Source: Kagunavirus NRG857CP3. Taken from it: a DNA stretch of 44,234 nucleotides. The stretch's first letter is position 1; each line of letters begins with the position of its first letter. Both the position numbers and the translations under genes were made by a program. This document shows positions 27,318 through 43,656 of this stretch, one piece after another. Below the pieces are notes generated by a model, which worked only from the letters and a program-made list of their open reading frames with translations, had not been told where the DNA came from and searched no databases. The stretch is taken from the sequence record OZ035734.1. One strand, 5' to 3'.

Positions 27318-27445
27318 TCAAGCACCCACAGATAAATCGCGATGAACATACCTAATACGGCGACCATCATGCCGTATTGGCCCTCGTGACAGTAGACACC
27401 GGCGGCAAACCCCGCCAGTACCGCAATACTCAGTTTACTTAGCAT
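27314..27445 (-). CDS. small hydrophobic ORF (43 aa, predicted membrane peptide)
   Basis: Found by reading; overlaps 3' end of polymerase gene; coordinates approximate. Confidence 0.2.
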   Translation of the reverse strand: MLSKLSIAVLAGFAAGVYCHEGQYGMMVAVLGMFIAIYLWVLE

Positions 27446-29687: not shown

Positions 29688-29703
29688 ATTATTTTCGACC
29701 CTT

Positions 29704-29732
29704 AGTAAAAAGGCCCAATGAAGGGCCTTAGT
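29704..29732 (-). terminator. intrinsic terminator on minus strand (AAGGCCC-TTCATTG-GGCCTTTTT)
   Basis: Stem-loop plus U tract downstream of SSB-like gene, upstream of polymerase start. Confidence 0.55.
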
Positions 29733-29748
29733 TAAATTGATTCAGATA

Positions 29749-30375: not shown

Positions 30376-30429
30376 CTTGATTTCTCGCTTTTCAGTTTAC
30401 TCCGGGAAGCTGCCCGGCCAGTGATTAGA

Positions 30430-30458
30430 ACTATAATAGTTAACTATTCAGGTGTCAA
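30430..30458 (-). promoter_or_regulatory. sigma70 promoter TTGACA-N17-TATAGT with perfect spacer palindrome AATAGTTAACTATT
   Basis: Consensus -35, near-consensus -10, 17-bp spacer. Confidence 0.7.
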
Positions 30459-30462
30459 CACT

Positions 30463-31719
30463 TTATTCCAGATCTTCTTCACTAACCTGATTCCACTCAG
30501 GACGTTTGTCGTCTGCCGTTGCGACACATGGCGCTCCGGGCTTACGAGTGATGAAGTCTTTCAGCTCTTCTTCCGGCACAACTTTAACAGCTTCGGTTGG
30601 CGTCATGAGCACTTCTTTAGTTAGCTTGTCGCCGTAGAGTTCTGCCACTTTCCCCGCGTCTTTCCACGCACGGTTGCCCATCTTACCTTCGACCAGCTTA
30701 TACCCCGGCACTTTCTTGCCAGAATGCAACGCGGCGGACATCGCTTTTTCAACCTTGTCAATGTGCTGGCGTAACAACGGCAGCTTCTCATACTCGGCGA
30801 CGAGTTGCCCTGGTGTCAGTTCCAGCGCAAAGTCGTCCTCCAGTTCCTCTGCCAGTACAGAATTAACCGTCTTCGTTCTGGCAGCGCACTGTTCTGAGAA
30901 CCTACACCACTGACAGCCATCGACCGACGGCTTAAAGTCTGACGCTTTCAGGTTCTTCTTACCACGGAAGTACGCGTCGAGTGCTAACAGTGCACGTTTC
31001 TGTGCGAACTTAGCGAACAGTTCCAGGCCTTCAACCGAGATGTCCCACTCCGACGCACCACCAGCGTACGGCTGGAAGATGACCAGACGAACAGTTGTTA
31101 TGTTATAACGTCTCTTGAGTCGGCGATAAACACCGAGAGCATAAAGCATAAGCTGCTTGTTTTCTTTCGCTTCGACACGATGCCGTCCGGTTTTCAGGTC
31201 GCCGATGATAAGCATGTGCTCGTCAGTGTTCGCCATCTCCTGAACGGCAACAAGGTCGGCGGTTCCGAACGTCTCAACGCCTTCATGACCCGGATGCAAT
31301 ACCTCAGTAAGATTGACACGCATCTCGAGCTTGGCATAAGTCGCAACGTCTATAATCGCTTTGCAGTAGTCGGTGTACTTGCGCACCTGCTCAATCATGT
31401 CCGCCGTAATCAGTACCGCGCCTTTCATCGGACTGATTAGTGCCTTAATCTGGCCTTTACCCTCATCCAGCACGTAAGCGCCGACTTCACGCTCTAACGG
31501 CAGCGCAGTACCTTTGATGTACTGGTTAAGGTGCATCTCAGCTATCGTGTGCATAGCTGTGCCTAATACCGCAGCTTTACCGGACGTGTTGGGAATATCT
31601 TTTTCACAGGCCAGTGACGCAGCACAGCTAAGCCACTTTTTAGCACCTGACGGTGACAGCAGGGCGTGCACATCGTTATTGCCGCCGCGTTCCTTTAAAA
31701 TCATACCCTGTTCTCCCAC
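30463..31719 (-). CDS. PD-(D/E)XK exonuclease, Cas4/RecB-like (DUF2800-like) with C-terminal Cys cluster
   Basis: C-terminal CQWCRFSEQC plus upstream Cys; nuclease-type motifs. Confidence 0.6.
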   Translation of the reverse strand: MGEQGMILKERGGNNDVHALLSPSGAKKWLSCAASLACEKDIPNTSGKAAVLGTAMHTIAEMHLNQYIKGTALPLEREVGAYVLDEGKGQIKALISPMKGAVLITADMIEQVRKYTDYCKAIIDVATYAKLEMRVNLTEVLHPGHEGVETFGTADLVAVQEMANTDEHMLIIGDLKTGRHRVEAKENKQLMLYALGVYRRLKRRYNITTVRLVIFQPYAGGASEWDISVEGLELFAKFAQKRALLALDAYFRGKKNLKASDFKPSVDGCQWCRFSEQCAARTKTVNSVLAEELEDDFALELTPGQLVAEYEKLPLLRQHIDKVEKAMSAALHSGKKVPGYKLVEGKMGNRAWKDAGKVAELYGDKLTKEVLMTPTEAVKVVPEEELKDFITRKPGAPCVATADDKRPEWNQVSEEDLE

Positions 31720-31973
31720 TGGTCAATCATATGTCGTGTCTTATGTTCGCAGTGCATAGCCCAGCCATACATCGACTCGAAGACATAAAAGTCAGGTTTG
31801 GCGAATGTAGTGCGCTTAATCTGCGACACGTGACGGCCCATATCTTTAGGCTGTGGTACTTTGCCTAAATAGGCCGTCTCTTCCATCTGGTGCGCACCGG
31901 ACGGCGCACGCAATAGCCATAGCGCCTCCGTGTTATCCCTCCGGTCGACGGCGCGGTAGAGTTGGTAAATCAT
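31701..31973 (-). CDS. hypothetical protein
   Basis: 90 aa ORF overlapping exonuclease start. Confidence 0.4.
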   Translation of the reverse strand: MIYQLYRAVDRRDNTEALWLLRAPSGAHQMEETAYLGKVPQPKDMGRHVSQIKRTTFAKPDFYVFESMYGWAMHCEHKTRHMIDQWENRV

Positions 31974-31987
31974 ATTTCCGACCCTCA

Positions 31988-32010
31988 GTTAAAGCGGCCC
32001 GAAGGCCGCG
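31988..32010 (-). terminator. stem-loop GCGGCC-CGAA-GGCCGC (weak terminator / attenuator)
   Basis: GC hairpin with short U run on minus strand. Confidence 0.3.
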
Positions 32011-32016
32011 AGATAG

Positions 32017-32514
32017 TTATTCTTCTTCGAAATACTTGTTCTTGATTGCCGTCAGGCGTTCCAGGTATTCAACAAGGTCTTCGTCTTTAATCGCGGCAAT
32101 CTTCATCTTCTTACCGGTGAACTCTTCCAGCAGTTCATCAGAATCGTCGCACGCGGCATCGCTCGGGCCTTCGTTAATCGCATCGTCGATAGCCTGAATC
32201 TGGTCACGCAGAGACTGGTAATCAATCATCTCGTCTACCTGCTCTGGTGTTACGGTTTCCTCTACTTTAGGTTTACGCGGCTTGCGTTTTGGCTTCTCTT
32301 CTTCTGCCGGTTTAGTGTCAACGATGCCTTCACCTTCGACCGGGATTTCTTTTGTTTTCTCGATTGTTGCGGTTTCTGCAACACCACTGTCGACGTCTTT
32401 ACCATATGGCGCAGTGATAGCCTTCGGCAGTTCAGTACGGCGTGCGCTGTTCGCAGCAATCAGTTCGTGTGCAACTACGAAACGTTCCAGTAATACTAAG
32501 AATTTCTCTAACAT
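32017..32514 (-). CDS. acidic hypothetical protein, first gene of leftward early operon
   Basis: About 24 percent D+E, acidic C-terminal half; directly downstream of consensus promoter. Confidence 0.5.
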   Translation of the reverse strand: MLEKFLVLLERFVVAHELIAANSARRTELPKAITAPYGKDVDSGVAETATIEKTKEIPVEGEGIVDTKPAEEEKPKRKPRKPKVEETVTPEQVDEMIDYQSLRDQIQAIDDAINEGPSDAACDDSDELLEEFTGKKMKIAAIKDEDLVEYLERLTAIKNKYFEEE

Positions 32515-32535
32515 TTGTTTCTCTCCTCTCGTTTG

Positions 32536-32564
32536 GTATGGGCTAACTATAATAGCGAACTATT
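32536..32564 (-). promoter_or_regulatory. sigma70 promoter TTGACA-N17-TATAGT with spacer inverted repeat AATAG-TTCG-CTATT
   Basis: Consensus boxes; leader AAACGAGAGGAGAGA. Confidence 0.7.
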
Positions 32565-32590
32565 CACATGTCAATGGGCTTTTCTAAAAT

Positions 32591-32620
32591 AATTAATATG
32601 GTACTATTCACATATCAACT
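32591..32620 (-). promoter_or_regulatory. second copy of TTGATATGTGAATAGTAC element (weak tandem promoter or operator repeat)
   Basis: Direct repeat of ACTATTCACAT(G/A)TCAA about 50 bp from first copy; -10 poor. Confidence 0.3.
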
Positions 32621-32638
32621 GACTAAGGAGTAATTGAC

Positions 32639-32854
32639 ATGCAACCATCTGAACTAGGCATCCGTGTAGAACAACGCCGTAAAGAACTCGGCATCTCCCA
32701 GCGCCGTCTGGCTGTCCTGACCGGAGTTTCCCAGGGCGCAATTAACCAGCTGGCACTCGGCGTAACTCAGGACGTCCGCCCGGCAACGCTGTTTAAACTG
32801 GCGGAAGTGCTGGAAGTAGACGCCAAGTGGCTGGCGTTTGGTGAAGGGGCTTAA
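32639..32854 (+). CDS. XRE-family helix-turn-helix transcriptional regulator (Cro/CI-like)
   Basis: HTH signature ISQRRLAVLTGVSQGAINQL; RBS AAGGAG. Confidence 0.8.
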   Translation: MQPSELGIRVEQRRKELGISQRRLAVLTGVSQGAINQLALGVTQDVRPATLFKLAEVLEVDAKWLAFGEGA

Positions 32855-32870
32855 TGCCCCTTTCTTTTTA
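32845..32870 (+). terminator. intrinsic terminator (AGGGGC-TTAAT-GCCCCT + TTTCTTTTT)
   Basis: Stem-loop and U tract overlapping the stop of the XRE gene. Confidence 0.6.
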
Positions 32871-33182
32871 TTGCAACTTATCAAGTTCTTCCAAATTCTT
32901 AATCGTGTGTTGCACATTCAGGTACTGAATCCAGGCAAAAAGCCATACGCTCACCGGAAAACTAACCACGGCAGCCGTTCTGAAAACAATGTGGATAGTG
33001 CACGCTATAATCTCCTTTACCGTCATATTCAGAACGTGGCGCAATTCTGCAACTTCCTCTAACGCTAGCTTGCAAGCAGGCCACCATTGGTTTGCTACGC
33101 AGGAAACGCATGTCAGGTATGTCGGGCGGTACCCCGACCTCACTGCTTTAAACGGGTTATCTATAAAATCGTAAATATTCAT
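32868..33182 (-). CDS. hypothetical protein (hydrophobic C-terminus)
   Basis: 104 aa ORF overlapping primase-helicase stop. Confidence 0.4.
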   Translation of the reverse strand: MNIYDFIDNPFKAVRSGYRPTYLTCVSCVANQWWPACKLALEEVAELRHVLNMTVKEIIACTIHIVFRTAAVVSFPVSVWLFAWIQYLNVQHTIKNLEELDKLQ

Positions 33183-35443
33183 TCCAAATCCTCCTCTGTC
33201 ACTGTCAACATTTCATTCGGTTCGTATATTGTCTTCGGAATCTTGTTATCCGTTATTCGGGTGTTCAGCCTGTAACGGCCAGGGATTATCTGATTGTTTT
33301 CGTCAGTCCCCGGAACAAGATACCCCGCCTCAACCATTTTCTTAATCTTCCCGCGTTCTATGGCTTCTTTGGAGTTGAACGCCTTTGCGTTGGGGTCGGA
33401 CTGTGCCAGCTTATTCGCTGCGGCTACCGTGATGCCTTCGTTGCCGTTGTAGGTTCCTTCCGCCAGCTCAAACGCTGCCAGTATCGTGGCTTCCGAATTG
33501 TTGACGGCGTTCTCTACGGTTTTACGTACGTTTTCTTTACCTTCCTTTGTCAGCCCTTCTTCCCGCTCTTTCTCCTCGTCGGTCTTGAACGGCTCGAAGC
33601 CCCACGGCATCAACACAAGCGCCTTGTGCGGTTCAGGCAGGTCGAGGTTAACGATTGTGCCATACTCCTCTGTGCTACCCAGGAACTCAACCGCGCGGTA
33701 CTCTTTCGGCGGCGGGGCTTCACGAAACTGTACCGACTCCAGCACCATACCAATCGTTTTCTGTTGCGGCCCGTGCTTAAATTTAGTGTGTGACACGTTA
33801 ATCTGGCGGTCGGTTGCACGCTCGATTGTCAGCTCCACATCGACACCCGCATACAATGCACCGCTGCCACGGGCTTTCTTTCCACCTTTCGGTGTGTGAT
33901 GGACTACACCAACGGCGGCTTTAGTCGCGTCGCGAACTTCTTTCAGGATGGCGATAACCTTACCCATACCGATTGCCGTTGATGAACTGTTCTCGTCGAA
34001 CTTATCGATGGTCAGGGCCAGCGTCTGGTTAAGGGTGTCAAATGCGACCATACCGATTGGATCATCGCCCGCGGTTTCGCGCATTAACTTAATCAGGCTT
34101 TTCAGTTTGCCGACTTCACCCATATCGATAAGGTGGATGTAGTTCTTTCCTTCCTCGCCGTATTTAGCCGCGAGTGCGTCGATACGTGTGCGTGTAGCCG
34201 CACCGCCTTCACCGTCGATATAAAAGTGATGGCAGCGCTGTGTATCAGCGCCCGCAAACCGATATCCGGCAGCGCTCAGGTACATCATGCCCAGGGTGTA
34301 GAAAGACTTATACGTGCCGGACTCTCCGACAATATCCCATATACAATCTGACGGCATGTAGCCTTCGACGACGAAATCGGCCTTTACAGGTTCCGGTAAC
34401 TCGTCTTCCTCAGAGTCGTCATCCTCCAGGTCGTCGAGGCTACATTCGACCGTCTCACGCGCACCCCAGCCGATGGCCTCAGCAACTTCACTGAACGGCA
34501 GCCCGGTCGCTTCGCAGGCGTATTTCCACACCTCTTTCGGCGACATGCCCTCTGTTGCCGTCAGGTCGGTGTCGTGAATCATGGTTACGTTAGGTGCGGC
34601 GTACCCCTCGCGCGGGAAGCACAGCAGGAAATCATCCGGGCGCGGTGTCGGGTCGCTGTAGTTCTCAGCGTGCTCAGGCGTCGCGGGCATCTTCAGACCG
34701 CGTGGCGTAATGACACCACCATACTCAAACGCCAGTGCTTCGAACGCGTCCGTAAACGCTGTGCGCAGTTCTTCCGGTATCTGGTAGTCGGATGCGCTGC
34801 TTACCTCGTAATCCGGGACTCCTTCCAGCAGACGGTCTGGGTCAATCAGGTCATTGCGGCGTGACCAGACGACCTCAGAGTTAACTGGTGGCAGGTACAT
34901 CGGCTGGGACAGGGTAAACCCGCTGCGGTCAGCACCCATGCCTTTAAAGAAATGCTCCAGCAGCCCGTGACGAACGCGGATGATATCACCGCCTTCTACC
35001 GGGCGCGCCAGCGGCATAACGACACGGAAACGCGGTGATTCGTCGGTGTGCGATGCCGTGGTGTACAGGCACATCGCTACACGGCTACGTTTAACCAGCC
35101 GCACGGCTTCCTGATACTCTTCGGGCGTCGCGCTGTCGAAATCCAGATAAGCCAGCGACGATTTGCTTACGGACGCATCACAGCGGTAGAAGAAGCCCCG
35201 GCGCGCCTGTTTAAACTCGCCTGTTTCCGGGTCTTTCACAGTGCTATGTGTTGAATCGCACGCAGCGGTAATGTAACCAGGCGCGGTCTTTGGGTTAACC
35301 CCGTCACGAACGGCGTCAAGTGGCTGGATTAACTCTTTCAGGTCGTCCAGTGTTGCCGTGTGGGTGGTTCTGACGTTTATATCCTTTTTCTCCGCCCGCG
35401 CGTTGCGACGGGACCACGAATAGGATAAAATTACATCGGACAT
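33179..35443 (-). CDS. primase-polymerase / RecA-like helicase fusion (replicative primase-helicase)
   Basis: 754 aa; central P-loop block GESGTYKS and RecA-like helicase motifs. Confidence 0.6.
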   Translation of the reverse strand: MSDVILSYSWSRRNARAEKKDINVRTTHTATLDDLKELIQPLDAVRDGVNPKTAPGYITAACDSTHSTVKDPETGEFKQARRGFFYRCDASVSKSSLAYLDFDSATPEEYQEAVRLVKRSRVAMCLYTTASHTDESPRFRVVMPLARPVEGGDIIRVRHGLLEHFFKGMGADRSGFTLSQPMYLPPVNSEVVWSRRNDLIDPDRLLEGVPDYEVSSASDYQIPEELRTAFTDAFEALAFEYGGVITPRGLKMPATPEHAENYSDPTPRPDDFLLCFPREGYAAPNVTMIHDTDLTATEGMSPKEVWKYACEATGLPFSEVAEAIGWGARETVECSLDDLEDDDSEEDELPEPVKADFVVEGYMPSDCIWDIVGESGTYKSFYTLGMMYLSAAGYRFAGADTQRCHHFYIDGEGGAATRTRIDALAAKYGEEGKNYIHLIDMGEVGKLKSLIKLMRETAGDDPIGMVAFDTLNQTLALTIDKFDENSSSTAIGMGKVIAILKEVRDATKAAVGVVHHTPKGGKKARGSGALYAGVDVELTIERATDRQINVSHTKFKHGPQQKTIGMVLESVQFREAPPPKEYRAVEFLGSTEEYGTIVNLDLPEPHKALVLMPWGFEPFKTDEEKEREEGLTKEGKENVRKTVENAVNNSEATILAAFELAEGTYNGNEGITVAAANKLAQSDPNAKAFNSKEAIERGKIKKMVEAGYLVPGTDENNQIIPGRYRLNTRITDNKIPKTIYEPNEMLTVTEEDLE

Positions 35444-35500
35444 GTGTATATTCCTTCAGAAAGTAATTTGGCCTCGGCGTTCTAGCGTCGGGGCTTTCTT

Positions 35501-35791
35501 TTAACGTTTAGCCAGACATTCCATTAAATGTGAATATTTTCTGTAATAGCAAGGAACTAAATCACACCCAAAATAATGATAAACATAAGCCAAGTGGTCG
35601 GTAACATCTATAGCGGCCGACATTGTGTTAAGACGGCGAAGGCTAATCAACCGTAATTCTTCCGTAATGCAAAATGGTTCATACGTATCAAGTTTGCAAG
35701 AAACGTTAAAACACAGAGCATAGCCGTCTTGTGCGGAGTAGACCAGAAATGCGCTGTCGTTCTCTTTATCGTGAAAAATTACACCTTTCAT
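35501..35791 (-). CDS. hypothetical protein
   Basis: 96 aa, RBS AAGGAGA. Confidence 0.4.
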   Translation of the reverse strand: MKGVIFHDKENDSAFLVYSAQDGYALCFNVSCKLDTYEPFCITEELRLISLRRLNTMSAAIDVTDHLAYVYHYFGCDLVPCYYRKYSHLMECLAKR

Positions 35792-35958
35792 TTCACATTC
35801 TCCTTAACCCACGCTTCTACTTTATTTCGGTCAAACGTACCCGGCATACGGCGGCCCATTACTTTAACGCTGCAATCAGGAAACTTCCCGCTTTTAATCC
35901 AGTTATTTATTGTCTGGCGAGTAACTCCGATTAATTCTGCTACTTCATTTATAGTCAT
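35788..35958 (-). CDS. small HTH DNA-binding protein (AlpA/excisionase-like fold)
   Basis: MTINEVAELIGVTRQTINNWIKSGKFP; start set at ATG after AGGAGA RBS (ORF track 36048). Confidence 0.5.
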   Translation of the reverse strand: MTINEVAELIGVTRQTINNWIKSGKFPDCSVKVMGRRMPGTFDRNKVEAWVKENVK

Positions 35959-35987
35959 TTCACGATCTCCTGTGTAAGATGTAGTGA

Positions 35988-36016
35988 AGTATAAAGCGGT
36001 AACTTTGTAAAAGCAA
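35988..36016 (-). promoter_or_regulatory. sigma70 promoter TTGCTT-N17-TATACT (minus strand) for HTH/primase operon
   Basis: Read from reverse complement; divergent partner of promoter at 36064. Confidence 0.5.
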
Positions 36017-36063
36017 CCAAAACAACACACAAAGTAACTAATATACAAAAGATGCTACTGGTA

Positions 36064-36092
36064 TTGACTTTTACTTAAAAATATGCTAAGCT
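36064..36092 (+). promoter_or_regulatory. sigma70 promoter TTGACT-N17-TAAGCT with extended -10 TG (paralog of 5332)
   Basis: Near-identical to promoter at 5332..5360. Confidence 0.6.
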
Positions 36093-36335
36093 TCACTGAG
36101 CTTGTGAGATATCGCAAGCGACCGCGGAGCGGCAGGGAACGCAACGCGTGCCATTAGGCACTTGAGTGTAGTTCCGCTGGCGCTTTCGGAAAGGCCAAAG
36201 TCTATTGTTAATCCCGCCTAAATACCCAAGTCACTGATAATTAAAAGTTTCTATAGTTGCCGTAAGCAAGGTAGAGAGTACTTCACTCCGCTGGGGTGGG
36301 CTAACGCCCACCCACTGCGTTGCGTACTCTTTTAA
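36093..36335 (+). ncRNA. candidate structured leader RNA / small RNA, copy 2
   Basis: Core about 75 percent identical to copy 1 with conserved blocks CTGAGCTTGTGA, CAAGCGACCGCGG, TGAGTGTAGTT, TTCGGAA, GGCCA; followed by GC hairpin GGGGTGGGC-TAAC-GCCCACCC. Confidence 0.35.
36291..36335 (+). terminator. GC hairpin with distal U tract (weak terminator)
   Basis: Stem GGGGTGGGC/GCCCACCC; T run 16 nt downstream. Confidence 0.3.
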
Positions 36336-36371
36336 GAAACGAAGAATCACAACGGCAACGTAACTAATCTC

Positions 36372-36400
36372 TTGCACACCCCAACATAATAGTATACTAT
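36372..36400 (+). promoter_or_regulatory. sigma70-like promoter TTGCAC-N17-TACTAT with spacer palindrome AATAGTATACTATT
   Basis: Same architecture as minus-strand morons' promoters; leader AAACGAGACAGAGGAG. Confidence 0.55.
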
Positions 36401-36434
36401 TCACTTATCGAAACGAGACAGAGGAGTGAGGGTT

Positions 36435-36620
36435 ATGTTTAAGAAGGGTCAGTTGGTGAAAACTAAGCGCAACGGTGTCGGGGTAATTAGGCGAGTTTCA
36501 CAGAAGGTAAAAGGTCGATATCTTCTTAGTAACCCGGAATGGGCTTTTGATATGTATTTCCGGGAGCCCGAAATAGTAGAACTCATCGGCAACAATTTTA
36601 AATTCAAAGGGGCGAAGTGA
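36435..36620 (+). CDS. hypothetical protein
   Basis: Start at ATG after AGGAG RBS (ORF track GTG 36426). Confidence 0.4.
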   Translation: MFKKGQLVKTKRNGVGVIRRVSQKVKGRYLLSNPEWAFDMYFREPEIVELIGNNFKFKGAK

Positions 36621-36823
36621 TGGAAGAATTATTTGAAGAGCTAAAACACCATGAACTGGAAGAAGTGCATTTCATAGCTAACCATTACAGGGTTACTTTA
36701 TTAGGCGGTTCGACTATTTCTTCCGGGGTATGGGAAGACCTGCTAAAAGTTTTGCGTGTGCTTCGAACGGCATCGAATCATGATGCTCGTGCCGACGGCT
36801 CTGAGGGAGGTTGCCGTAAATGA
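36617..36823 (+). CDS. hypothetical protein
   Basis: Overlapping stop/start GTGATGG. Confidence 0.35.
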   Translation: MMEELFEELKHHELEEVHFIANHYRVTLLGGSTISSGVWEDLLKVLRVLRTASNHDARADGSEGGCRK

Positions 36824-37077
36824 ATAACACTGAACTGGAAACTGTTGCCGAAAAACTGCATAAGGTGCGGGTAATGGCTCGGGGCGCAGGGCTGGAGCAA
36901 TTTTACAACATGTGGCGCACAGCGACGCGCGACCCTGATTTCACGAGAACAGGGTGTCTCTTGTATAAAGACGTTTATCCGATTCGTGCTCGCAAGGATT
37001 ACGGTTGGGTTCGTGAAACGCCTAATCTTTTGTGGTGTTGGGCGCATGGTGAGTTCTGGGTAAGGGTTAAGGACTAA
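36820..37077 (+). CDS. hypothetical protein
   Basis: Overlapping stop/start ATGA. Confidence 0.4.
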   Translation: MNNTELETVAEKLHKVRVMARGAGLEQFYNMWRTATRDPDFTRTGCLLYKDVYPIRARKDYGWVRETPNLLWCWAHGEFWVRVKD

Positions 37078-37080
37078 GTT

Positions 37081-37224
37081 ATGAGAGAAGCATTTGAACG
37101 GTGGGCCGTCGTCGAGGGTCTGCCGGTTAACAAGGGTTCGAAGAAAGAGTACCTGAACGTTAAGACGCGTCTCGCGTGGCGGGCGTGGAAAGCTGGTGTG
37201 TTGTCTGTTACGAGTCCGAGGTGA
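37081..37224 (+). CDS. small hypothetical protein (47 aa)
   Basis: ATG after AAGGA; found by reading. Confidence 0.3.
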   Translation: MREAFERWAVVEGLPVNKGSKKEYLNVKTRLAWRAWKAGVLSVTSPR

Positions 37225-37227
37225 GAT

Positions 37228-37452
37228 ATGGGCAAGTGGGTTAAGTGTAGTGAGCGGATGCCTGATAGCAATTGCTTGTATCTTTGCTGGGGGACGTATT
37301 TTGAAGGGGGTGAGCCAGGTTACATTCCATCTTATTTCTTCGCCCATCAAACCAATGGATGTGTGGAGTGGCAGCCGGTAGAGGATGACTGCAATCCTCG
37401 CGAAGTAAGCATAACTCACTGGATGCCGTTACCGGAGCCGCCGGAACAATAG
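37228..37452 (+). CDS. DUF551-like protein
   Basis: N-terminal WVKCSERMPD motif characteristic of DUF551 (recalled). Confidence 0.45.
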   Translation: MGKWVKCSERMPDSNCLYLCWGTYFEGGEPGYIPSYFFAHQTNGCVEWQPVEDDCNPREVSITHWMPLPEPPEQ

Positions 37453-37465
37453 TTTGGGATTTTAC

Positions 37466-37500
37466 TGAGTGACTTACGCTGCTACACAGCAGCGTATCAT
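37466..37500 (+). terminator. intrinsic terminator (ACGCTGCT-ACAC-AGCAGCGT + TATCATTTTTCTCATTTTT)
   Basis: Perfect 8-bp stem and U-rich tail. Confidence 0.65.
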
Positions 37501-37566
37501 TTTTCTCATTTTTGTTCTATTTCACCAAACGCAACAATCGAAGCGACTATTGCAGGAGATGCAACA

Positions 37567-37851
37567 ATGACAGACAGAGAGAAGATAGAATTCTTACGCG
37601 GCTACATGACGGGCGTAGGCCATACCGACGGTACGCCATTCAGTGATGCAACACTAACCCTGAATAGCGGTCGTTCGTGTGATATGTATTACATGCGCGA
37701 AATTGAAGGGTTACTGGCGCACCTGAATATCGTCGGGGTTCTTGGAGCGCCGTCCCCGAGCGATGTGTTCGTGTACCGCTGGTTAAAGGCGAACAGAGTT
37801 ATTGACGCCTTCTCCGCGTTGCAGGAGATGCAACAATACAAACACCAATAA
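37567..37851 (+). CDS. hypothetical protein
   Basis: 94 aa ORF, RBS GGAG. Confidence 0.4.
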   Translation: MTDREKIEFLRGYMTGVGHTDGTPFSDATLTLNSGRSCDMYYMREIEGLLAHLNIVGVLGAPSPSDVFVYRWLKANRVIDAFSALQEMQQYKHQ

Positions 37852-37858
37852 AATTTAC

Positions 37859-37887
37859 TTGCACACTAAGATAGAATAGGCTACTAT
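37859..37887 (+). promoter_or_regulatory. sigma70-like promoter TTGCAC-N17-TACTAT with spacer repeat AATAG-GCTA-CTATT
   Basis: Leader ACAAACGAGAGGAGAGA precedes ATG. Confidence 0.55.
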
Positions 37888-37918
37888 TCATTTACACAAA
37901 CGAGAGGAGAGACCGAAG

Positions 37919-38644
37919 ATGAGTAACAAAAACGAAGTATTCGAGTATCTGATTGACCAGCTACGGCAGCAGGTAAATAAGAAAGATGTGACATCCTTCA
38001 ATGTATCTGTGCGGATATCAGACCTTGATGAGGTCAAGCAGGTAATCCACAACCTACAGCAGCATATCGCTGGTAAGGACGACGAAATACGTGTGCTGAA
38101 AGACAGACTACGGCAGCAGCTAGAGGTCGTAGATGTAGTGGGTGAAATCAAACGGTGGAGTATTGACCGTAGTATTGCTGGCCGCGGTAACTATACCGAC
38201 GAGGAAAACGCCGTAATCGATGCTTACATCGGCCTGGAGCACGACCCGTACAAGCAACAGTGCGAAGACCTGGCGCATGAGGTGCAGTCACTTAAGAATC
38301 AGTTACGTGATGCGTCGGCGCAGATTAAGGAGTTGCATAAAGGGCTTGAGTATATTGGGGGCGAGTACAGACGAGCACTTGATTACGATCTTAGCGATGA
38401 ACCTAAGCAATCTGGTTGCCGTAAGGGATACACCCAGAAATCATGCTGGATTGAGTGGTCAGGAGGAGCTTGCCCTGTGCCGCGCGGAACACTTGTAGAT
38501 GTTATTTACCGCGACGGGGAAACCTTATGTGGCTTGCCTGCTGATGAGCTTAACGACACGGAAAGAGATGCTAGCGTCTGCTTTTGGCGACACAATGGTA
38601 TGTCTAATGACATAGTTCGTTACCGTAAGGCCGTGCGCCAATGA
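37919..38644 (+). CDS. hypothetical protein, coiled-coil N-terminus, conserved Cys/Trp-rich C-terminal domain (possibly Ea22-like)
   Basis: C-terminal block WIEWSGGACPVPRGTLVDV; family assignment from memory only. Confidence 0.4.
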   Translation: MSNKNEVFEYLIDQLRQQVNKKDVTSFNVSVRISDLDEVKQVIHNLQQHIAGKDDEIRVLKDRLRQQLEVVDVVGEIKRWSIDRSIAGRGNYTDEENAVIDAYIGLEHDPYKQQCEDLAHEVQSLKNQLRDASAQIKELHKGLEYIGGEYRRALDYDLSDEPKQSGCRKGYTQKSCWIEWSGGACPVPRGTLVDVIYRDGETLCGLPADELNDTERDASVCFWRHNGMSNDIVRYRKAVRQ

Positions 38645-38841
38645 CCAGCATCTTATTTATATGGGTACTGACCGCAGGCCGGTTACAACTCGCGGCAACA
38701 GAAACGTTTTACTCACTGGAGGCGTGCCAGGCAGCGGCACGCAACGCAGAGAACGCGCACTTCCTGTTTCAGGATAAGCCGATTGATACCGAGGTGCGCG
38801 CAACATGTTCAACGAAACGATTAGGTAAGCAGGAGAAATAA
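38641..38841 (+). CDS. hypothetical protein
   Basis: Overlapping stop/start ATGA. Confidence 0.35.
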   Translation: MTSILFIWVLTAGRLQLAATETFYSLEACQAAARNAENAHFLFQDKPIDTEVRATCSTKRLGKQEK

Positions 38842-38842
38842 G

Positions 38843-39124
38843 ATGGTACAGAGATACGATTTACAAGAAGACTGGGTTACCGGACATATTGACTTAGAGA
38901 AAGATACCGACGGCGACTGGGTTAGCTACGAAGACTACGCGGAGCTTGCGCGTAAATTTAATGAGCTTAAGGCATGGCGTACGCGGATACTTAATGACGC
39001 CTCCGACTCTCTGACACGGGCGGAGAAAGCGGAAGCCGAGGTACAGAAATACAAAGACCAGTTCCCGGATTACGTCGAGTGCCCGAACTGTGGGTCGTTT
39101 ACATATGTGGAATGGGTGGAATGA
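38843..39124 (+). CDS. hypothetical protein with C-terminal CxxC
   Basis: RBS AGGAG; ECPNCG motif. Confidence 0.4.
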   Translation: MVQRYDLQEDWVTGHIDLEKDTDGDWVSYEDYAELARKFNELKAWRTRILNDASDSLTRAEKAEAEVQKYKDQFPDYVECPNCGSFTYVEWVE

Positions 39125-39372
39125 TGATGACGAGTAGAGAACGGTTTGAAAAGTGGTTTAATAAAAGAAGCAACTGGAAAATAACTCCATCAATGAGAAA
39201 GAAGGATGGATATATTGGCAACCCATCTGCGCAAAGCAAATGGGAGGTGTGGAAGGCGTCACGCGAAGAAATTGAGATTCAAGCGTGTCCGTGCCCAAAC
39301 GACCATGGCCCGTATGTTGATGACCATTATCGCGAGCAAATTGATAACGCAGGCCTAAAGTTGAAAAAATGA
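39121..39372 (+). CDS. hypothetical protein
   Basis: Start at ATGATGATG overlapping upstream stop (ORF track 39079). Confidence 0.35.
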   Translation: MMMTSRERFEKWFNKRSNWKITPSMRKKDGYIGNPSAQSKWEVWKASREEIEIQACPCPNDHGPYVDDHYREQIDNAGLKLKK

Positions 39373-39414
39373 TTATCCAACTGAACAACATCATGAAAGC
39401 AGGTATCATTCAGC

Positions 39415-39747
39415 TTGAAGATTACGGTATACAACTCGCGGAGATTGTGGGATATGAGCCTTGCAACTGACATCCTGAAACGAAGCGGCCTTGCGCCGCT
39501 GTCACCGAGAGCGAACACTCGGATATACAAGCGCCGCCGTAACGCGTTGTACCCAGAGATTCAGGCCAGACGCAAAGCGGTCCGCGCCTGTGGATTCCAG
39601 AACGGGAAGGCCGTGAATCTCGGTGAGTTTAAAACACAGGAACGCGCAGCAATCGCTAATCGGTTATTTAATTACTGGAAATCGCTGGGGTACGATGATA
39701 TTCCGACGAAACCGCAGAGACGACAATACATCTGGAGACACAAATAA
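39415..39747 (+). CDS. hypothetical basic protein
   Basis: 110 aa, R/K-rich. Confidence 0.35.
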   Translation: MKITVYNSRRLWDMSLATDILKRSGLAPLSPRANTRIYKRRRNALYPEIQARRKAVRACGFQNGKAVNLGEFKTQERAAIANRLFNYWKSLGYDDIPTKPQRRQYIWRHK

Positions 39748-39822
39748 ACAACTATTAGGATAATTCCTACCCGTGGTATCCTCCAGTTACTGCATACTTA
39801 ATACGCACCTGGAGGATTAATC

Positions 39823-40131
39823 TTGGATAAATTTACTGAAACAGTGACGGGGTGGCTTCTCGCCGCCGCACTGGTCGGTGGATTGGTCGGACTAAGACAA
39901 CATAAAAAGTCTATATCCGGGCCGATTGACGGACTGGTATTTCTTCTAACCGGCTTCGCGTGTGCCATTTTCGGTGCACCTCTTGCCGCTCAATGGTTCG
40001 GTATTACCGGTGAGCGCGAGATAGCTGGCCTCGGATTCATCATTGCCATTCTCTGGATGCCTATCTATTCCCGCCTTTCTGGCATCGTATCGGGTGGCGA
40101 TATTTCCCGCCCGGGAGGACCTCATGACTGA
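39823..40131 (+). CDS. holin (putative)
   Basis: Small protein with 2-3 predicted TM helices, immediately upstream of endolysin; RBS GGAGG; TTG start. Confidence 0.5.
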   Translation: MDKFTETVTGWLLAAALVGGLVGLRQHKKSISGPIDGLVFLLTGFACAIFGAPLAAQWFGITGEREIAGLGFIIAILWMPIYSRLSGIVSGGDISRPGGPHD

Positions 40132-40396
40132 GCTATTCTGGTTTGTCGTAATGCTGGCAATGGGCGCTTCGTCCCTGTTCAACGTGTATCACCCCAGCGT
40201 GGACGACGGGTTATTTGGTCGGGTGCTCTATATCCTGACCGCTATTGTCTGCGCCGCCGGATGCATCCACCTGTTACAGGGCAGTATGTCACCGACGCTG
40301 CCCGAGACATTAATCACATTAGTCGCGCTACGTCAGATTCGTCAGGCGTGGCTGTCGTACGGAGGACATAAGCGTGTCTCGAAATATTTCAGATAA
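40124..40396 (+). CDS. second small membrane protein (holin/antiholin-like)
   Basis: Two predicted TM helices; start at ATG after GGGAGGA (ORF track 40043). Confidence 0.4.
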   Translation: MTELFWFVVMLAMGASSLFNVYHPSVDDGLFGRVLYILTAIVCAAGCIHLLQGSMSPTLPETLITLVALRQIRQAWLSYGGHKRVSKYFR

Positions 40397-40862
40397 TGGA
40401 TTGCATTTCACCGCTGCATTTGAGGGATTCCGCGGAACTGCGTATCGCGCTACGCCAAACGAGAAGTACCTGACGATAGGCTATGGGCACTACGGGCAGG
40501 ACGTAACGCCTGGCAAGACCATCACACCAGGACAAGGCCTTCTGTTACTGAATCGCGATATGGCTAAGGCCGTAGCTGCGGTCGATGCCGCAGCGCACCA
40601 TTCGTTGACACAGGCGCAGTTCGACGCTGTGTGTGACCTGGTGTACAACGCGGGTGCTGGTGTGATTTCCGCCACTACAGGCACGGGTAAGGCGCTGCGT
40701 TCCGGTGATATTGCGACGCTGCGTGCCAAGCTGGCGCTGTTTGTCAACCAGAACGGCAAGCCGTTACTCGGCCTGCGTCGCCGTACCACCGGTCGCTTGG
40801 CGCTGTTCGACGGTAAACCGTGGCAAGAGGCGGAGGCTATCGGGCGCGCGGTGAAAGGTTGA
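40374..40862 (+). CDS. endolysin, lysozyme (glycoside hydrolase family 24-like)
   Basis: Motif FEGFRGTAYR...TIGYGH typical of T4/lambda-type lysozymes; GTG start after GGAGGA. Confidence 0.75.
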   Translation: MSRNISDNGLHFTAAFEGFRGTAYRATPNEKYLTIGYGHYGQDVTPGKTITPGQGLLLLNRDMAKAVAAVDAAAHHSLTQAQFDAVCDLVYNAGAGVISATTGTGKALRSGDIATLRAKLALFVNQNGKPLLGLRRRTTGRLALFDGKPWQEAEAIGRAVKG

Positions 40863-40928
40863 CACCTAAGATTAATCCGACGATACTTAAATCACCTCCT
40901 GTTCCATCCCTCTGCTCTCCAGTTTTAT

Positions 40929-40958
40929 CCCGGCCCTGACCCAGCCGGGATTTTTTTT
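40929..40958 (+). terminator. intrinsic terminator (CCCGGC-N9-GCCGGG + TTTTTTTT)
   Basis: GC stem and 8-T run after endolysin. Confidence 0.75.
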
Positions 40959-40980
40959 ATCTATTATTTGCAATGACTAG

Positions 40981-41009
40981 TTGACTATTACCTACAACCC
41001 TACTATATT
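40981..41009 (+). promoter_or_regulatory. sigma70 promoter TTGACT-N17-TATATT
   Basis: Leader CGACAACGAGAACGGAG precedes ATG at 41043. Confidence 0.55.
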
Positions 41010-41042
41010 TACTCCATCGACAACGAGAACGGAGTAGAGAAG

Positions 41043-41255
41043 ATGAAATTATATTTAGTAGAAGCCAGCTGGTGCGATTATGACCAATACGATTCTTTTG
41101 TGGTGTGGGCTAAGTCCCCGGAAGAAGCATTGAGCCTGGTTCGCGCTAAGGATGACCCAACAACTATGAATAACTTCAACGATAACGTAAAAGTTACCGA
41201 AATCAAGAAACCAAAAGAAAGCGGCATCGTACTAGGCTCATTTAACGCAGGATAA
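41043..41255 (+). CDS. hypothetical protein
   Basis: 70 aa, RBS GGAG. Confidence 0.4.
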   Translation: MKLYLVEASWCDYDQYDSFVVWAKSPEEALSLVRAKDDPTTMNNFNDNVKVTEIKKPKESGIVLGSFNAG

Positions 41256-41410
41256 TGAATATGAAAATCACAGATACAGAAGCATTCGAAGACGCACAAC
41301 TGATGGCACGTATCGCCGTTGGCAACCTGAGCAGCAATATCCCGGCGGACGCGTTCTGGGCCGCGGCGATGCAGGCACTGAAAGCAGCTTATGCAGGAGA
41401 GAAGAAATGA
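41255..41410 (+). CDS. small hypothetical protein (about 51 aa)
   Basis: Found by reading; start overlaps upstream stop; stop overlaps next start. Confidence 0.3.
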   Translation: MNMKITDTEAFEDAQLMARIAVGNLSSNIPADAFWAAAMQALKAAYAGEKK

Positions 41411-41610
41411 TTGTTAGCTATGAGATGCCGTCGGAGGGCCAATTTGTAGCGGTGTGGTTTATCGGGGATTTCCCCTATTCAGCAACTCTTAGATGGGAGC
41501 ACGGTCAACTTAAAGCCTATAACTACTCTGAGGACTGCTGGGATTGCGAATGCGCCCACGGGTATAGTGCTCAGGCACTGGAAGAATTAGAAGCAACATA
41601 TTACAGGTGA
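41407..41610 (+). CDS. hypothetical protein
   Basis: 67 aa, overlapping start. Confidence 0.4.
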   Translation: MIVSYEMPSEGQFVAVWFIGDFPYSATLRWEHGQLKAYNYSEDCWDCECAHGYSAQALEELEATYYR

Positions 41611-41616
41611 TAAGAA

Positions 41617-41775
41617 ATGAGTGAACAAGGCCCAGCAAACCAGCCATTACGGGTAGGCCGTAAAGTTAGTCACACCCCGTTCCCGACACGCGAGGAACTG
41701 ATGAAACGTAACAGTTTCCCGGGGCCGGACAAGAACAAGTATCTCAATCGCATGTGGGGAGAGCGTAAAGAATGA
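41617..41775 (+). CDS. small hypothetical protein (52 aa)
   Basis: Found by reading; translationally coupled chain. Confidence 0.3.
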   Translation: MSEQGPANQPLRVGRKVSHTPFPTREELMKRNSFPGPDKNKYLNRMWGERKE

Positions 41776-41945
41776 CCAATAACGAATACGAAAAAGTATG
41801 CGTCGAATCTGCTACCGGTGAATCTGAAATAGCGTGGATTGACGCGCACATCGAGCACTACCTACGGCAGGTAGACATCCTTATGGAACGCCGCCGTGAA
41901 CTGATTAACCGCTTCAACCTGAACAAAGGAAACACCAATGCCTAA
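41772..41945 (+). CDS. small hypothetical protein (57 aa)
   Basis: Found by reading; ATGA overlap with previous ORF. Confidence 0.3.
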   Translation: MTNNEYEKVCVESATGESEIAWIDAHIEHYLRQVDILMERRRELINRFNLNKGNTNA

Positions 41946-42123
41946 AATCACAATCGCATCACTCGAGCGCCGTATTATGGTGCTTGAGTCAGAGAAACAG
42001 ACGTTAGGTGGGCAACTGTCAATTAACGGTGAGTTTCAACTGGAGGCGTTTAAGATGTTGCTTGAGCGCATGAAGGACGAGGAAGATTGGGCGCATTCCT
42101 TGCAAGACCTCTGGCAATACTAA
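41938..42123 (+). CDS. hypothetical protein
   Basis: 61 aa. Confidence 0.35.
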   Translation: MPKITIASLERRIMVLESEKQTLGGQLSINGEFQLEAFKMLLERMKDEEDWAHSLQDLWQY

Positions 42124-42125
42124 AT

Positions 42126-42308
42126 ATGAAAGCTCCTGAGCCAGTAGTTATAGATGGCGTCCTGTGGAAACCTTACTCGGTTAACCACATCGACGCCGAC
42201 GGGAAGAAGTTCAGCTTCTACATTTTTGCAATCAGCCGTGAGCACGCCGCCTGTGTGGTCGACGATATACGAGAAACGGCGTGCCTCGGCGACGAGATAG
42301 TGGGGTGA
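42126..42308 (+). CDS. hypothetical protein
   Basis: Start at internal ATG right after previous stop (ORF track 42087). Confidence 0.35.
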   Translation: MKAPEPVVIDGVLWKPYSVNHIDADGKKFSFYIFAISREHAACVVDDIRETACLGDEIVG

Positions 42309-42312
42309 GAGT

Positions 42313-42543
42313 ATGTTTCATGAATTAAAGATATTACCTGAGCATTTTGAGCCTGTTCTGGCAGGCCTTAAACTGGCGGAACTGCGATTAAACGACCGCG
42401 ACTTCAAGGAAGACGACACTCTGTGCCTGAGAGAATACGAAAACGGTGAATACACTGGGCGCATAGTTTACCGTCGTGTTACCCATGTTGCTGATGTATC
42501 TTCGTACCTTCCTGGTTACGTGTTGCTGAGTATGGAAGATTAA
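42313..42543 (+). CDS. DUF3850-like (ASCH-fold) protein
   Basis: HELKILPEHFEPVLAGLK...NDRDFKEDD...YTGR pattern recalled as DUF3850/ASCH-like. Confidence 0.45.
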   Translation: MFHELKILPEHFEPVLAGLKLAELRLNDRDFKEDDTLCLREYENGEYTGRIVYRRVTHVADVSSYLPGYVLLSMED

Positions 42544-42545
42544 TT

Positions 42546-42716
42546 ATGTTCGACAATATTGATGTAGCAATCGAAGAAGCAATCTGGCGTCGCTACAACG
42601 GCGAACAACAAAGGCACTTCTGCCTCGTGCAGCGTGGTAACATGATTGCCGTAGTGCAGGACAGAGATAACAAATACCCAAATGCGATGTGGACGACGAG
42701 GAATTTCTTAGGATGA
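42546..42716 (+). CDS. small hypothetical protein (56 aa)
   Basis: Found by reading. Confidence 0.3.
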   Translation: MFDNIDVAIEEAIWRRYNGEQQRHFCLVQRGNMIAVVQDRDNKYPNAMWTTRNFLG

Positions 42717-42949
42717 TTACCAGCATTCCGAACCTGATTAAAGAATTTGGCACGATGGCGGAGACATGCCGACAAACCGGCATCAACGAAATGACGATTG
42801 CGAAGTACAGCAAAGACGTTAACTGCGAGCGCCACGTAATTTATAACAATCGTCTCATGACGCACGTTAAGACGAGCCCGGTGCTATTCACGCGCCGTGG
42901 TATCACTAAAACAGAGCAACGTATTGCTAAAGAGGAGAGCGGGGAGTGA
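42713..42949 (+). CDS. hypothetical protein (possible HTH)
   Basis: ATGA overlap with previous; segment ETCRQTGINEMTIAKYS HTH-like (ORF track 42689). Confidence 0.35.
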   Translation: MITSIPNLIKEFGTMAETCRQTGINEMTIAKYSKDVNCERHVIYNNRLMTHVKTSPVLFTRRGITKTEQRIAKEESGE

Positions 42950-43218
42950 TTGAATATGATAACTACCACATAAACCGGTGTGAGGCACTTGAATTTTTGT
43001 CCAGAAACTTCCGCGATTTCCCAGAACACATGCCTAATGTGCGCGAAGTTGCGGAGGGTATTTCCGAGAACATATTCAAAGGCTGGCGATTCGTCGTTAT
43101 TGATTCTGGTGAGTTGGTTTTCGCTGATTGCCTTTCACCGTGTATTCGTAAAATAGACCTTGAGGAATTTAATGCAACTTTTAGTCTTTCCGAATGCCTG
43201 GACTATAGCCGTAGCTAA
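42946..43218 (+). CDS. hypothetical protein
   Basis: 90 aa. Confidence 0.4.
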   Translation: MIEYDNYHINRCEALEFLSRNFRDFPEHMPNVREVAEGISENIFKGWRFVVIDSGELVFADCLSPCIRKIDLEEFNATFSLSECLDYSRS

Positions 43219-43288
43219 CGACCACTACGGTGGTGATGGTAAAAGAGCACCACGACACGGCCTATACAACTGATACGAGCAGAAGTTA

Positions 43289-43317
43289 TTGACGTCTGAA
43301 TAGTATGCTAGTATAGT
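43289..43317 (+). promoter_or_regulatory. sigma70 promoter TTGACG-N17-TATAGT
   Basis: Consensus-like boxes; leader AACAAACAGAGAGAGAAC. Confidence 0.6.
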
Positions 43318-43358
43318 TGAAACGCTTCATACACTAATTTAACAAACAGAGAGAGAAC

Positions 43359-43589
43359 ATGGATACTAAATTTGAAGTGATCGATGAAAACACAGTTACG
43401 GTAACGGAAGAAGGTAGCCACTACATCCTTATTGATAAGGTAAATGGTAGCTGGAGGGCAAAAGCGTACTTTAACGGCGGTGCTACAGTTGTCTCAAAAG
43501 GCGCACATACGTCTTTTACTTCCGCGTACGATAACCTTAAAGATGCGGTTAAGGCCGCGGCTAACCACCTATCATCTGTAGAACTATAA
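43359..43589 (+). CDS. hypothetical protein
   Basis: 76 aa followed by terminator. Confidence 0.45.
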   Translation: MDTKFEVIDENTVTVTEEGSHYILIDKVNGSWRAKAYFNGGATVVSKGAHTSFTSAYDNLKDAVKAAANHLSSVEL

Positions 43590-43604
43590 AATACCCAGCC
43601 AACA

Positions 43605-43628
43605 AGCCCTCTACGGAGGGCTTTTCTG
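43605..43628 (+). terminator. intrinsic terminator (AGCCCTC-TACG-GAGGGCT + TTTCTGT)
   Basis: 7-bp GC stem and U-rich tail. Confidence 0.6.
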
Positions 43629-43656
43629 TACATCCCGCCCAATCCCCTTATATAAT
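43627..43656 (+). promoter_or_regulatory. candidate late promoter with perfect -10 TATAAT and weak -35
   Basis: TATAAT at about 43651..43656; poor -35 suggests activator dependence. Confidence 0.35.

Follow-up and report, generated by a model that had tools for sequence, protein, structure and literature searches.

Background

The nearest functional analogues of the region treated here are the nin and ea/exo-xis regions of the lambdoid phages, and regions of the same kind are already known in other Guernseyvirinae. In P22 the ea and nin regions are delayed-early and non-essential. Morons, to which one gene of the region is compared below, are defined in temperate phages and are expressed there from the prophage. 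We analysed positions 36435-43589 (the span) of Kagunavirus NRG857CP3 (sequence record OZ035734.1); the window, i.e. the complete stretch of 44,234 nucleotides (nt), is the whole genome of a member of Kagunavirus (Guernseyvirinae), a small virulent siphovirus of Escherichia coli. An earlier note on this DNA had described the span as a dense, early, accessory region of small open reading frames (ORFs) and as the usual home of host-takeover and anti-defence genes. We found the description accurate and the interpretation unproven, partly contradicted and, for a minority of the genes, plausible. In our reading, of which we are fairly confident, the span forms the rightward arm of small genes in a lytic Kagunavirus, located between the leftward replication module and the terminase, divided over several transcription units and composed of a core with swapped genes in between. 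The combination of genes is new.

Gene content and translational coupling

The first gene starts at the ATG at 36435, with AGGAG 8 nt upstream, and the last one stops at 43589. We called 27 plus-strand genes: 24 small ORFs of 33-241 amino acids (aa), the holins g13 and g14, and the endolysin g15 (Table 1). The median length over all 27 is 74 aa and their summed lengths amount to 93% of the span (overlap bases counted twice). Coupled or near-coupled junctions make up 21 of the 26: 4-nt overlaps (ATGA/GTGA; 8 junctions), 1-nt overlaps (2), longer overlaps of 8-23 nt (4) and gaps of 1-6 nt (7); the other five are true intergenic gaps of 67-180 nt. The dense run of about 25 small, translationally coupled ORFs that had been noticed before is thereby borne out.

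Together with these junctions, two results confirm that this is a dense coupled set of real small genes: i) 26 of the 27 genes matched a PHROG family, against none of seven control ORFs (antisense or alternative-frame ORFs of 83-213 aa within the span); and ii) the ratio of non-synonymous to synonymous differences (pN/pS), pooled against the homologues in about 60 related loci, was 0.08-0.65 for 26 genes, g10 being uninformative with only 5 differences. Shine-Dalgarno motifs are present at most starts. In the left part of the span no ORF is longer than an antisense one (36778-37419, minus strand, 213 aa), which overlaps g3-g5 and is without PHROG family; we take it as a chance ORF because the overlapped plus-strand genes are under purifying selection. 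Six further off-frame ORFs, none with a PHROG family, were treated as chance as well.

Predicted transcription units

Five plus-strand promoter-like sites (P1-P5) lie exactly in intergenic gaps and are kept in 25-47 of the related loci, and the adjoining genes are often less widespread than the intergenic blocks, which in general are kept in 25-49 of the roughly 60 loci. P1 and P2 have a common leader besides their identical promoter motif. Three predicted intrinsic terminators (T1-T3) fold with -13.8 to -16 kcal/mol (z -3.2 to -5.5) and are each followed by a U-run. The conserved promoters and the three terminators point to about four units and not to one block. The several consensus promoters that had been claimed are indeed several, considering the five conserved gap sites, but not all of strict consensus, as the TTGCAC of P1 and P2 matches at 3 of 6 positions of the -35 element.

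The span would accordingly constitute a series of transcription units of the host sigma-70 type. Unit 1 would comprise P1, g1-g5 and T1, with g6 following T1; unit 2, P2, g7-g12, the holin-holin-endolysin cassette and T2; unit 3, P3 and g16-g26; and unit 4, P4, g27 and T3, would be a self-contained, moron-like cassette, after which P5 would start terS. Within the units, ribosomes would pass from gene to gene via the overlapping stop and start codons. The non-coding block after g26 (43219-43280, plus strand) is kept in 21-25 related loci whatever gene precedes it and has no significant RNA structure; it may be a recombination junction.

Several points weigh against this reading. P1-P5 and T1-T3 are sequence predictions, and a generic promoter scan returned 18 sites against 10.6 ± 3.6 expected, about two standard deviations over shuffled sequences. 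No recognisable promoter of its own was found for g6 and no terminator after g26 (z -0.4), and units 3 and 4 may therefore be one. At the level of the proteins, 19 of the 24 small ORFs are without a family of known or named function, and g25 scores under the Pfam cutoff for NinH (PF06322; 22.0 against 29.8 bits, E=1.6e-4).

Core and variable genes

The presence of each gene was counted among the loci that cover the relevant part (31 or 26 Kagunavirus loci). At least 85% of these contain g4, g5, g8, g12-g15, g17, g19-g22, g24 and g25. The genes g8, g12, g14, g15, g17, g20 and g25 also occur in at least 90% of the distant loci, defined by an endolysin less than 85% identical and including Jerseyvirus genomes, and g19 in 8 of 12. 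Nine genes (g3, g6, g10, g11, g16, g18, g23, g26 and g27), on the other hand, are each found in 0-20% of the Kagunavirus loci: g6, g10, g11, g16, g18 and g27 in one or two of those compared, and g3 and g23 in about one fifth. The word accessory is therefore right for these roughly nine variable genes and wrong for the roughly 15 that form the genus core.

In the relatives the slots are filled by many unrelated small ORFs, and the distances between conserved anchors are 2-791 nt for g8-g12, -1 to 257 nt for g17-g19, 180-723 nt for g15-g17 and 207-848 nt for g25-terS. Where alignable, the span is 87-93% identical to published Kagunavirus genomes at the nucleotide level, with a best single-genome coverage of at most 60%; the structural half shows a match of about 88-89% to K1ind2, K1G and relatives. 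The coverage and the slot sizes bear out that gene content varies among relatives, as had been anticipated.

We therefore envisage a backbone that the genus, and in part the subfamily, has conserved, and that would include likely nucleic-acid-binding or regulatory proteins (g12, g25) next to families in common with the lambdoid ea/nin regions (DUF551, DUF2737, NinZ-like). Relatives would swap the nine slot genes through recombination, either at the conserved promoter/terminator blocks or at those gene junctions that are conserved. Recombination at conserved junctions is indicated by the chimeric or truncated state of g2, g7, g9 and g11, the last of which, given its partial family match, is probably a recombination remnant. 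The variable genes may well be dispensable modulators of host or phage processes.

The gene g27 has its own predicted promoter and terminator (P4, T3) and a variable presence, the properties of a moron: it occurs in 1 of 26 Kagunavirus loci, and several of the distant loci contain it at 89-92% protein identity. This distribution implies that distant relatives within the subfamily exchanged the cassette recently.

Table 1. Coordinates of the genes, predicted signals and other features in and around the span (window positions)
Feature	Position	Strand	Description
Terminase and structural genes	30 to ~25,000	+	
Rz/Rz1-type spanins	5585-5971, 5817-6080	+	overlapping; phrog_2536, E=7.5e-56; phrog_5672, E=4.4e-30; lipobox LASC
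int-alpA RNA match	14782-14846	+	Rfam RF02996
Replication genes	25,293-36,048	-	
HTH_17 protein	35788-36048	-	outside the span
Candidate non-coding RNA or structured leader	36064-36336	+	just upstream of g1
Candidate-RNA promoter	36064-36092		TTGACT-17-TAAGCT; invariant
Structured segment	36100-36200		-47.8 kcal/mol, z -3.2
Candidate RNA end	36273-36336		GC-rich hairpin and UUUU, z -3.8
P1 (predicted)	36372-36400	+	TTGCAC-17-TACTAT; before g1; palindrome AATAGTATACTATT at 36388-36401; kept in 37-43 related loci
g1	36435-36620	+	61 aa; basic, isoelectric point (pI) 10.4; phrog_12538; divergent alleles, median 44% identity
g2	36620-36823	+	67 aa; chimeric; phrog_30617 matched by C-terminal 18 aa only
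g3	36820-37077	+	85 aa; sole ORF without Pfam/PHROG family; variable, 6/31 loci; pN/pS 0.31
g4	37081-37224	+	47 aa; phrog_15836; weak match to phrog_343 (g10 family); genus-core
g5	37228-37452	+	74 aa; DUF551, E=4.5e-14; homologue of P22 orf87 and EaA C-terminus
T1 (predicted)	37469-37512	+	9-bp GC-rich hairpin, then U-run; -16 kcal/mol, z -5.5; 48-49 loci
g6	37567-37851	+	94 aa; phrog_37277; rare, 2/31 loci; between T1 and P2
P2 (predicted)	37859-37887	+	TTGCAC-17-TACTAT; palindrome AATAGGCTACTATT; kept in 38-40 loci
g7	37919-38644	+	241 aa; conserved N-terminus, long coiled coil, portable ~60-aa beta-rich C-terminal domain (phrog_6094)
g8	38641-38841	+	66 aa; phrog_3766; hydrophobic N-terminus; kept across subfamily
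g9	38843-39124	+	93 aa; acidic, net -11; conserved CxxC tail (phrog_29624), variable N-terminus
g10	39121-39372	+	83 aa; phrog_343; rare, 2/31 loci
g11	39369-39470	+	33 aa; matches only first 24 aa of 108-aa phrog_14549
g12	39454-39747	+	97 aa; very basic, pI 11.2; phrog_9632; kept across subfamily
Hairpin over holin ribosome-binding site	39779-39816	+	GGAGG 39811-39815 paired with UCCUCCAG; before g13 TTG start
g13, holin	39823-40131	+	TTG start; phrog_2359, E=4.6e-32
g14, holin	40124-40396	+	phrog_2508, E=6e-35
g15, endolysin	40374-40862	+	Pfam Phage_lysozyme, E=1.4e-27
T2 (predicted)	40927-40959	+	AUCCCGGC...GCCGGGAU, then U8; after endolysin; 45-47 loci
P3 (predicted)	40981-41009	+	TTGACT-17-TATATT; 10/12 consensus match
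g16	41043-41255	+	70 aa; phrog_5444; rare, 1/26 loci; hypervariable slot beside P3
g17	41255-41410	+	51 aa; phrog_2180; kept across subfamily
g18	41407-41610	+	67 aa; acidic, net -8; phrog_6314; rare, 2/26 loci
g19	41617-41775	+	52 aa; DUF2737, E=7.4e-10; homologue of P22 orf56
g20	41772-41945	+	57 aa; phrog_1402; NinZ-like (P22 NinZ, E=1e-6)
g21	41938-42123	+	61 aa; phrog_9023
g22	42126-42308	+	60 aa; phrog_10509; strong constraint, pN/pS 0.09
g23	42313-42543	+	76 aa; DUF3850/ASCH; variable, 5/26 loci
g24	42546-42716	+	56 aa; phrog_5407
g25	42713-42949	+	78 aa; NinH-like, putative DNA-binding; phrog_268, E=4e-30
g26	42946-43218	+	90 aa; acidic, net -8; phrog_34180; absent from 26/26 compared Kagunavirus loci
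P4 (predicted)	43289-43317	+	TTGACG-17-TATAGT; 10/12 consensus match; one-mismatch palindrome copy
g27	43359-43589	+	76 aa; phrog_10134; moron-like cassette (predicted)
T3 (predicted)	43604-43629	+	AAGCCCUC-UACG-GAGGGCUU, then UUCU; after g27; -14.8 kcal/mol
P5 (predicted)	43627-43656	+	TGTACA-18-TATAAT; before terS; 10/12 consensus match
terS, small terminase	43722 to window end	+	phrog_3064, E=3.3e-72; directly after the span
Palindrome, perfect copies	3350, 5236, 14734, 26953, 30435, 32551, 36388, 37875		
Palindrome, one-mismatch copies	43299, 40976, 39743, 32595, 5327, 21836		

The terS gene reaches the window end without a stop codon, and position 30 is the start of the large terminase; the sequence was thus apparently opened within or at the end of terS.

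Protein families

The two domain assignments made earlier with a family name, DUF551 and DUF3850/ASCH, are both correct: g5 scores 53.5 bits for DUF551 (PF04448) against a Pfam cutoff of 22 (profile 1-68 of 68), and g23 scores 67.9 against 22.9 bits for DUF3850 and 23.6 against 21.2 bits for ASCH, with a match to the ASCH structure PDB 3iuw_A (E=5e-8) over its full length. The accompanying statement that few domains are recognisable had overlooked DUF2737 (PF10930) in g19 (39 bits against a cutoff of 25), the NinZ-like g20 and the NinH-like g25. In comparisons with P22 the pairs were g5 and orf87 (E=2e-9), g19 and orf56 (E=1e-10), g20 and NinZ (E=1e-6), and g25 and NinH (E=5e-6). Homologues of g3 were recovered from Kagunavirus-sized contigs only.

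The label "host nuclease inhibitor", which belongs to a 60-aa ORF of EC3-1 at the position of g22, was not adopted for g22; its homology to g22 was unconfirmed, and searches of Pfam, PDB and PHROG gave no functional support for g22. The labels "head protein", "cell division protein", "ferric uptake regulation protein" and "early transcription antiterminator", attached to ORFs of the equivalent regions in relatives, concern other or unverified genes and were likewise set aside. In the literature no usable account was found of gene essentiality in Kagunavirus or of the function of DUF3850.

The coiled-coil protein g7

A possible Ea22-like C-terminal domain had also been proposed. We took this to refer to g7, since no other coiled-coil protein of the span has a C-terminal domain set apart. 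The proposal failed all four direct tests of sequence and structure: Ead_Ea22 was not matched in a Pfam scan at E≤0.1, blastp against lambda Ea22, whose C-terminal domain has an NMR structure, gave a best E of 0.99, phmmer against PDB returned no Ea22 chain at E≤10, and a Foldseek search of PDB with the AlphaFold2 (AF2) model gave nothing at E<1. In that model helices occupy residues 33-87 and 110-158 and a beta-rich domain approximately 175-240, the C-terminal domain having a predicted local distance difference score (pLDDT) of about 70-93. With lambda Ea22 (architecture in PMC10834534) g7 shares a three-part layout, in which a long coiled coil connects a short conserved N-terminus to a variable C-terminal domain, but similarity of sequence and fold was found in no part and the present phage is not temperate. 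DUF551 is the C-terminal domain of one Ea22 variant of a Shiga toxin (Stx) phage (PMC10834534), whereas here it forms a separate gene, g5.

The members of the g7 family (951 hits) have the N-terminus and the coiled coil in common and are heterogeneous at the C-terminus; residues 114-166 of g7, like its N-terminus, are conserved in the alignment of the family. The C-terminal domain was retrieved with tblastn from 142 phage records (Escherichia, Klebsiella, Pseudomonas, Caulobacter, Aeromonas and Burkholderia), and among the 40 listed records none was annotated as Ea22, those with an annotation being hypothetical or without function. At the SGCRK junction of g7 (window 38420-38450) the C-terminal domain switches directly after the shared motif. 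Most members of the family end in a Cys-rich, zinc-ribbon-like tail (GCRKED..C.H.W...C..CG), and in some relatives this tail is fused to a g9-like protein instead. The small genes of the span thus appear to undergo domain shuffling.

A recurrent palindrome and candidate RNAs

The 14-bp palindrome AATAG-N4-CTATT occurs in 14 copies with at most one mismatch, where 1.06 ± 1.01 were expected and the maximum in 100 shuffles was 5. At least 10 copies are inside sigma-70-like promoter sites, on both strands, and such promoters precede g1, g7, g27, and the genes for a RusA-like resolvase, a Gp2.5-like single-strand-binding protein, a helicase and the tail chaperone. Related loci of Kagunavirus and Jerseyvirus have kept the palindrome in the corresponding places, and unrelated phages lack it. 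It has the look of an operator for a regulator that the phage itself encodes, for which the HTH_17 protein, g12 and g25 are candidates. Palindrome-bearing promoters were also considered as a marker of early genes; this was rejected, because the tail chaperone/tape-measure operon has one as well.

A separate plus-strand RNA, some 240 nt in length, may be encoded in the 386-nt gap upstream of g1. Within its structured segment compensatory changes were found in 4 pairs, and conserved G-U pairs favour the plus strand; at the end of the candidate RNA other lineages have a different hairpin. An Rfam search with the structured region gave no match. Another possibility is an origin-related or primer RNA beside the primase operon. 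Elsewhere in the window, the Rfam int-alpA model was matched with 36.6 bits against a gathering score of 35.8, with a palindrome-bearing promoter-like site just upstream of the match and the tail assembly chaperone gene downstream, a setting unusual for this motif.

Lysis genes and possible regulation

The lysis genes of the span include no spanin. The overlapping spanin genes are located with the head genes, at a distance of about 9 kb from those for holin and endolysin; holin, endolysin and spanin are thus not together and the cassette of the span is incomplete. The ribosome-binding site of the first holin is held in a hairpin of 8-9 bp (-18.9 kcal/mol), which is present in 43 of the 43 loci with this holin and in one variant is extended through matching changes in the stem. 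Its conservation suggests translational control of lysis timing. The gene that immediately precedes this holin, g12, encodes a protein whose model has a confident strand-strand-helix core, possibly an AP2-like DNA-binding fold, and we put forward DNA binding by g12 as a hypothesis.

These observations lend some weight to an alternative in which regulation and the timing of lysis are the main business of the span, as a conserved module (g12, g25, g20 and others), the variable genes being passengers and the small proteins controlling the switch to late transcription, lysis and packaging. A basic and possibly AP2-like g12 that is kept across the subfamily directly before the holin, the holin hairpin, a NinH-like g25 near terS, and a palindrome in many promoters, implying a phage-encoded DNA-binding regulator, all speak for it. 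The palindrome is however tied to no protein, and the HTH_17 protein outside the span is an equally good candidate; the assignments of DNA binding to g12 and g25 are weak, and in most conserved ORFs no nucleic-acid-binding signature is detectable. We regard this alternative as possible, albeit rather unlikely as the main account of the span.

Proposed early expression and anti-defence

The second alternative is the one favoured by the earlier note, namely that the proteins of the span form an arsenal for host takeover and anti-defence and are expressed early. The promoter-proximal, hypervariable small genes do resemble known counter-defence loci, several products are acidic (g9, g18 and g26), and P1, P2 and P4 are of the palindrome-bearing type that is also found at replication and recombination genes. 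Five ORFs have homologues in the P22 ea/nin regions, which are early and non-essential. Moreover, proteins of the Jerseyvirus SeF1 from phrog_6094 (the family of g7), phrog_2180 (g17) and phrog_1402 (g20) were scored as candidate anti-CRISPRs by machine learning, without validation (PMC9409062).

The searches for known anti-defence proteins nevertheless argue against such an arsenal. No anti-defence family (Ocr, ArdA, Gam, Acb, Tad, anti-CRISPRs and others) was among the Pfam hits of all 27 proteins, a search that does not cover families outside Pfam, and none was among the NCBIfam hits of 10 proteins. The PADLOC models of anti-phage defence systems, scanned with g3, g6, g7, g9, g10, g16, g18, g23, g26 and g27 (g11 was not included), yielded only coiled-coil noise for g7 (E ~4e-3). 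In the BASEL phenotyping, Kagunavirus phages were highly sensitive to restriction-modification and variably to Old (PMC11990801). The proposed home of host-takeover and anti-defence genes is therefore not supported by Pfam, NCBIfam or PADLOC and sits badly with the restriction-modification sensitivity of the genus.

Further points speak against the arsenal and its early expression. More than half of the genes are genus-core, the span includes the lysis genes, abuts terS and is cut by the three predicted intrinsic terminators, and the palindrome is also in the promoter of the tail chaperone/tape-measure operon. In the RNA-seq report on K1B4, the only transcriptome study of a Kagunavirus, the lysozyme and the NinH homologue are in the "middle" class and only 4 genes are early, the one annotated gene among these being the helix-turn-helix (HTH) gene just outside the span; the time points of that study are coarse (PMC12645636). 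We consider an early arsenal improbable.

There is a narrower version, which we hold only tentatively and think unlikely: one or more of the rare slot genes, with g16, g27, g6, g3, g18 and g26 as candidates, might inhibit a host defence or process by an undescribed mechanism, and the conserved blocks might serve as landing pads that shuttle such genes between phages of E. coli and Salmonella.

Lastly, the view that gene-calling artefacts or functionless remnants in decay make up many of the small ORFs, for which the short family match of g11, the few differences in g10 and the single homologue each of g16 and g26 among about 60 loci could be cited, is hardly credible and for the gene set as a whole largely refuted by the PHROG matches, the pN/pS values and the Shine-Dalgarno motifs.

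Significance

In its present state the analysis matters little, as dozens of Kagunavirus and Jerseyvirus genomes already have a region of this kind in their annotation, and catalogued families of unknown function account for nearly all ORFs of the span. Its practical value is that of a map for experiments: about 15 conserved genes, likely needed or regulatory, are set apart from the variable ones, which are sensible first targets for deletion, toxicity and defence-inhibition screens. The predicted promoter and terminator positions are constraints for any redesign of the genome; the BASEL authors consider the small phage an attractive model for synthetic biology (PMC11990801).

Comparison with known systems

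As a rightward small-gene arm, the span compares most directly with its equivalents in Kagunavirus and Jerseyvirus (K1G, K1H, K1ind1-3, Golestan, SCS44, EC3-1 and BASEL Bas70-76), which are alike in genome position, in the holin-holin-endolysin cassette, in the conserved small genes and in the intergenic blocks with promoters and terminators; they differ from it in the combination of genes, no genome covering more than 60% of the span. The g27 cassette is like a moron in having its own predicted promoter and terminator and in its location between two conserved blocks. It is unlike one in its setting: morons are defined in temperate phages, and no lysogeny genes were found in the regions of the present phage that were examined.

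In the comparison with lambda and P22 no homologue of their NinB, NinG, Q, N or Ea22 was found here. The likeness to the nin and ea/exo-xis regions of lambda and P22 consists in runs of small non-structural ORFs, with ATGA-type overlaps here and overlapping annotated nin genes in P22, and in the families that occur in both: NinH-like, NinZ-like, DUF2737 (P22 orf56), DUF551 (P22 orf87, EaA) and, weakly, EaI/ASCH. The difference is one of lifestyle and of place, since the genes described here are those of a virulent siphovirus and flank the lysis cassette and abut terS, whereas in lambda and P22 they lie between the replication genes and Q, or between exo and xis.

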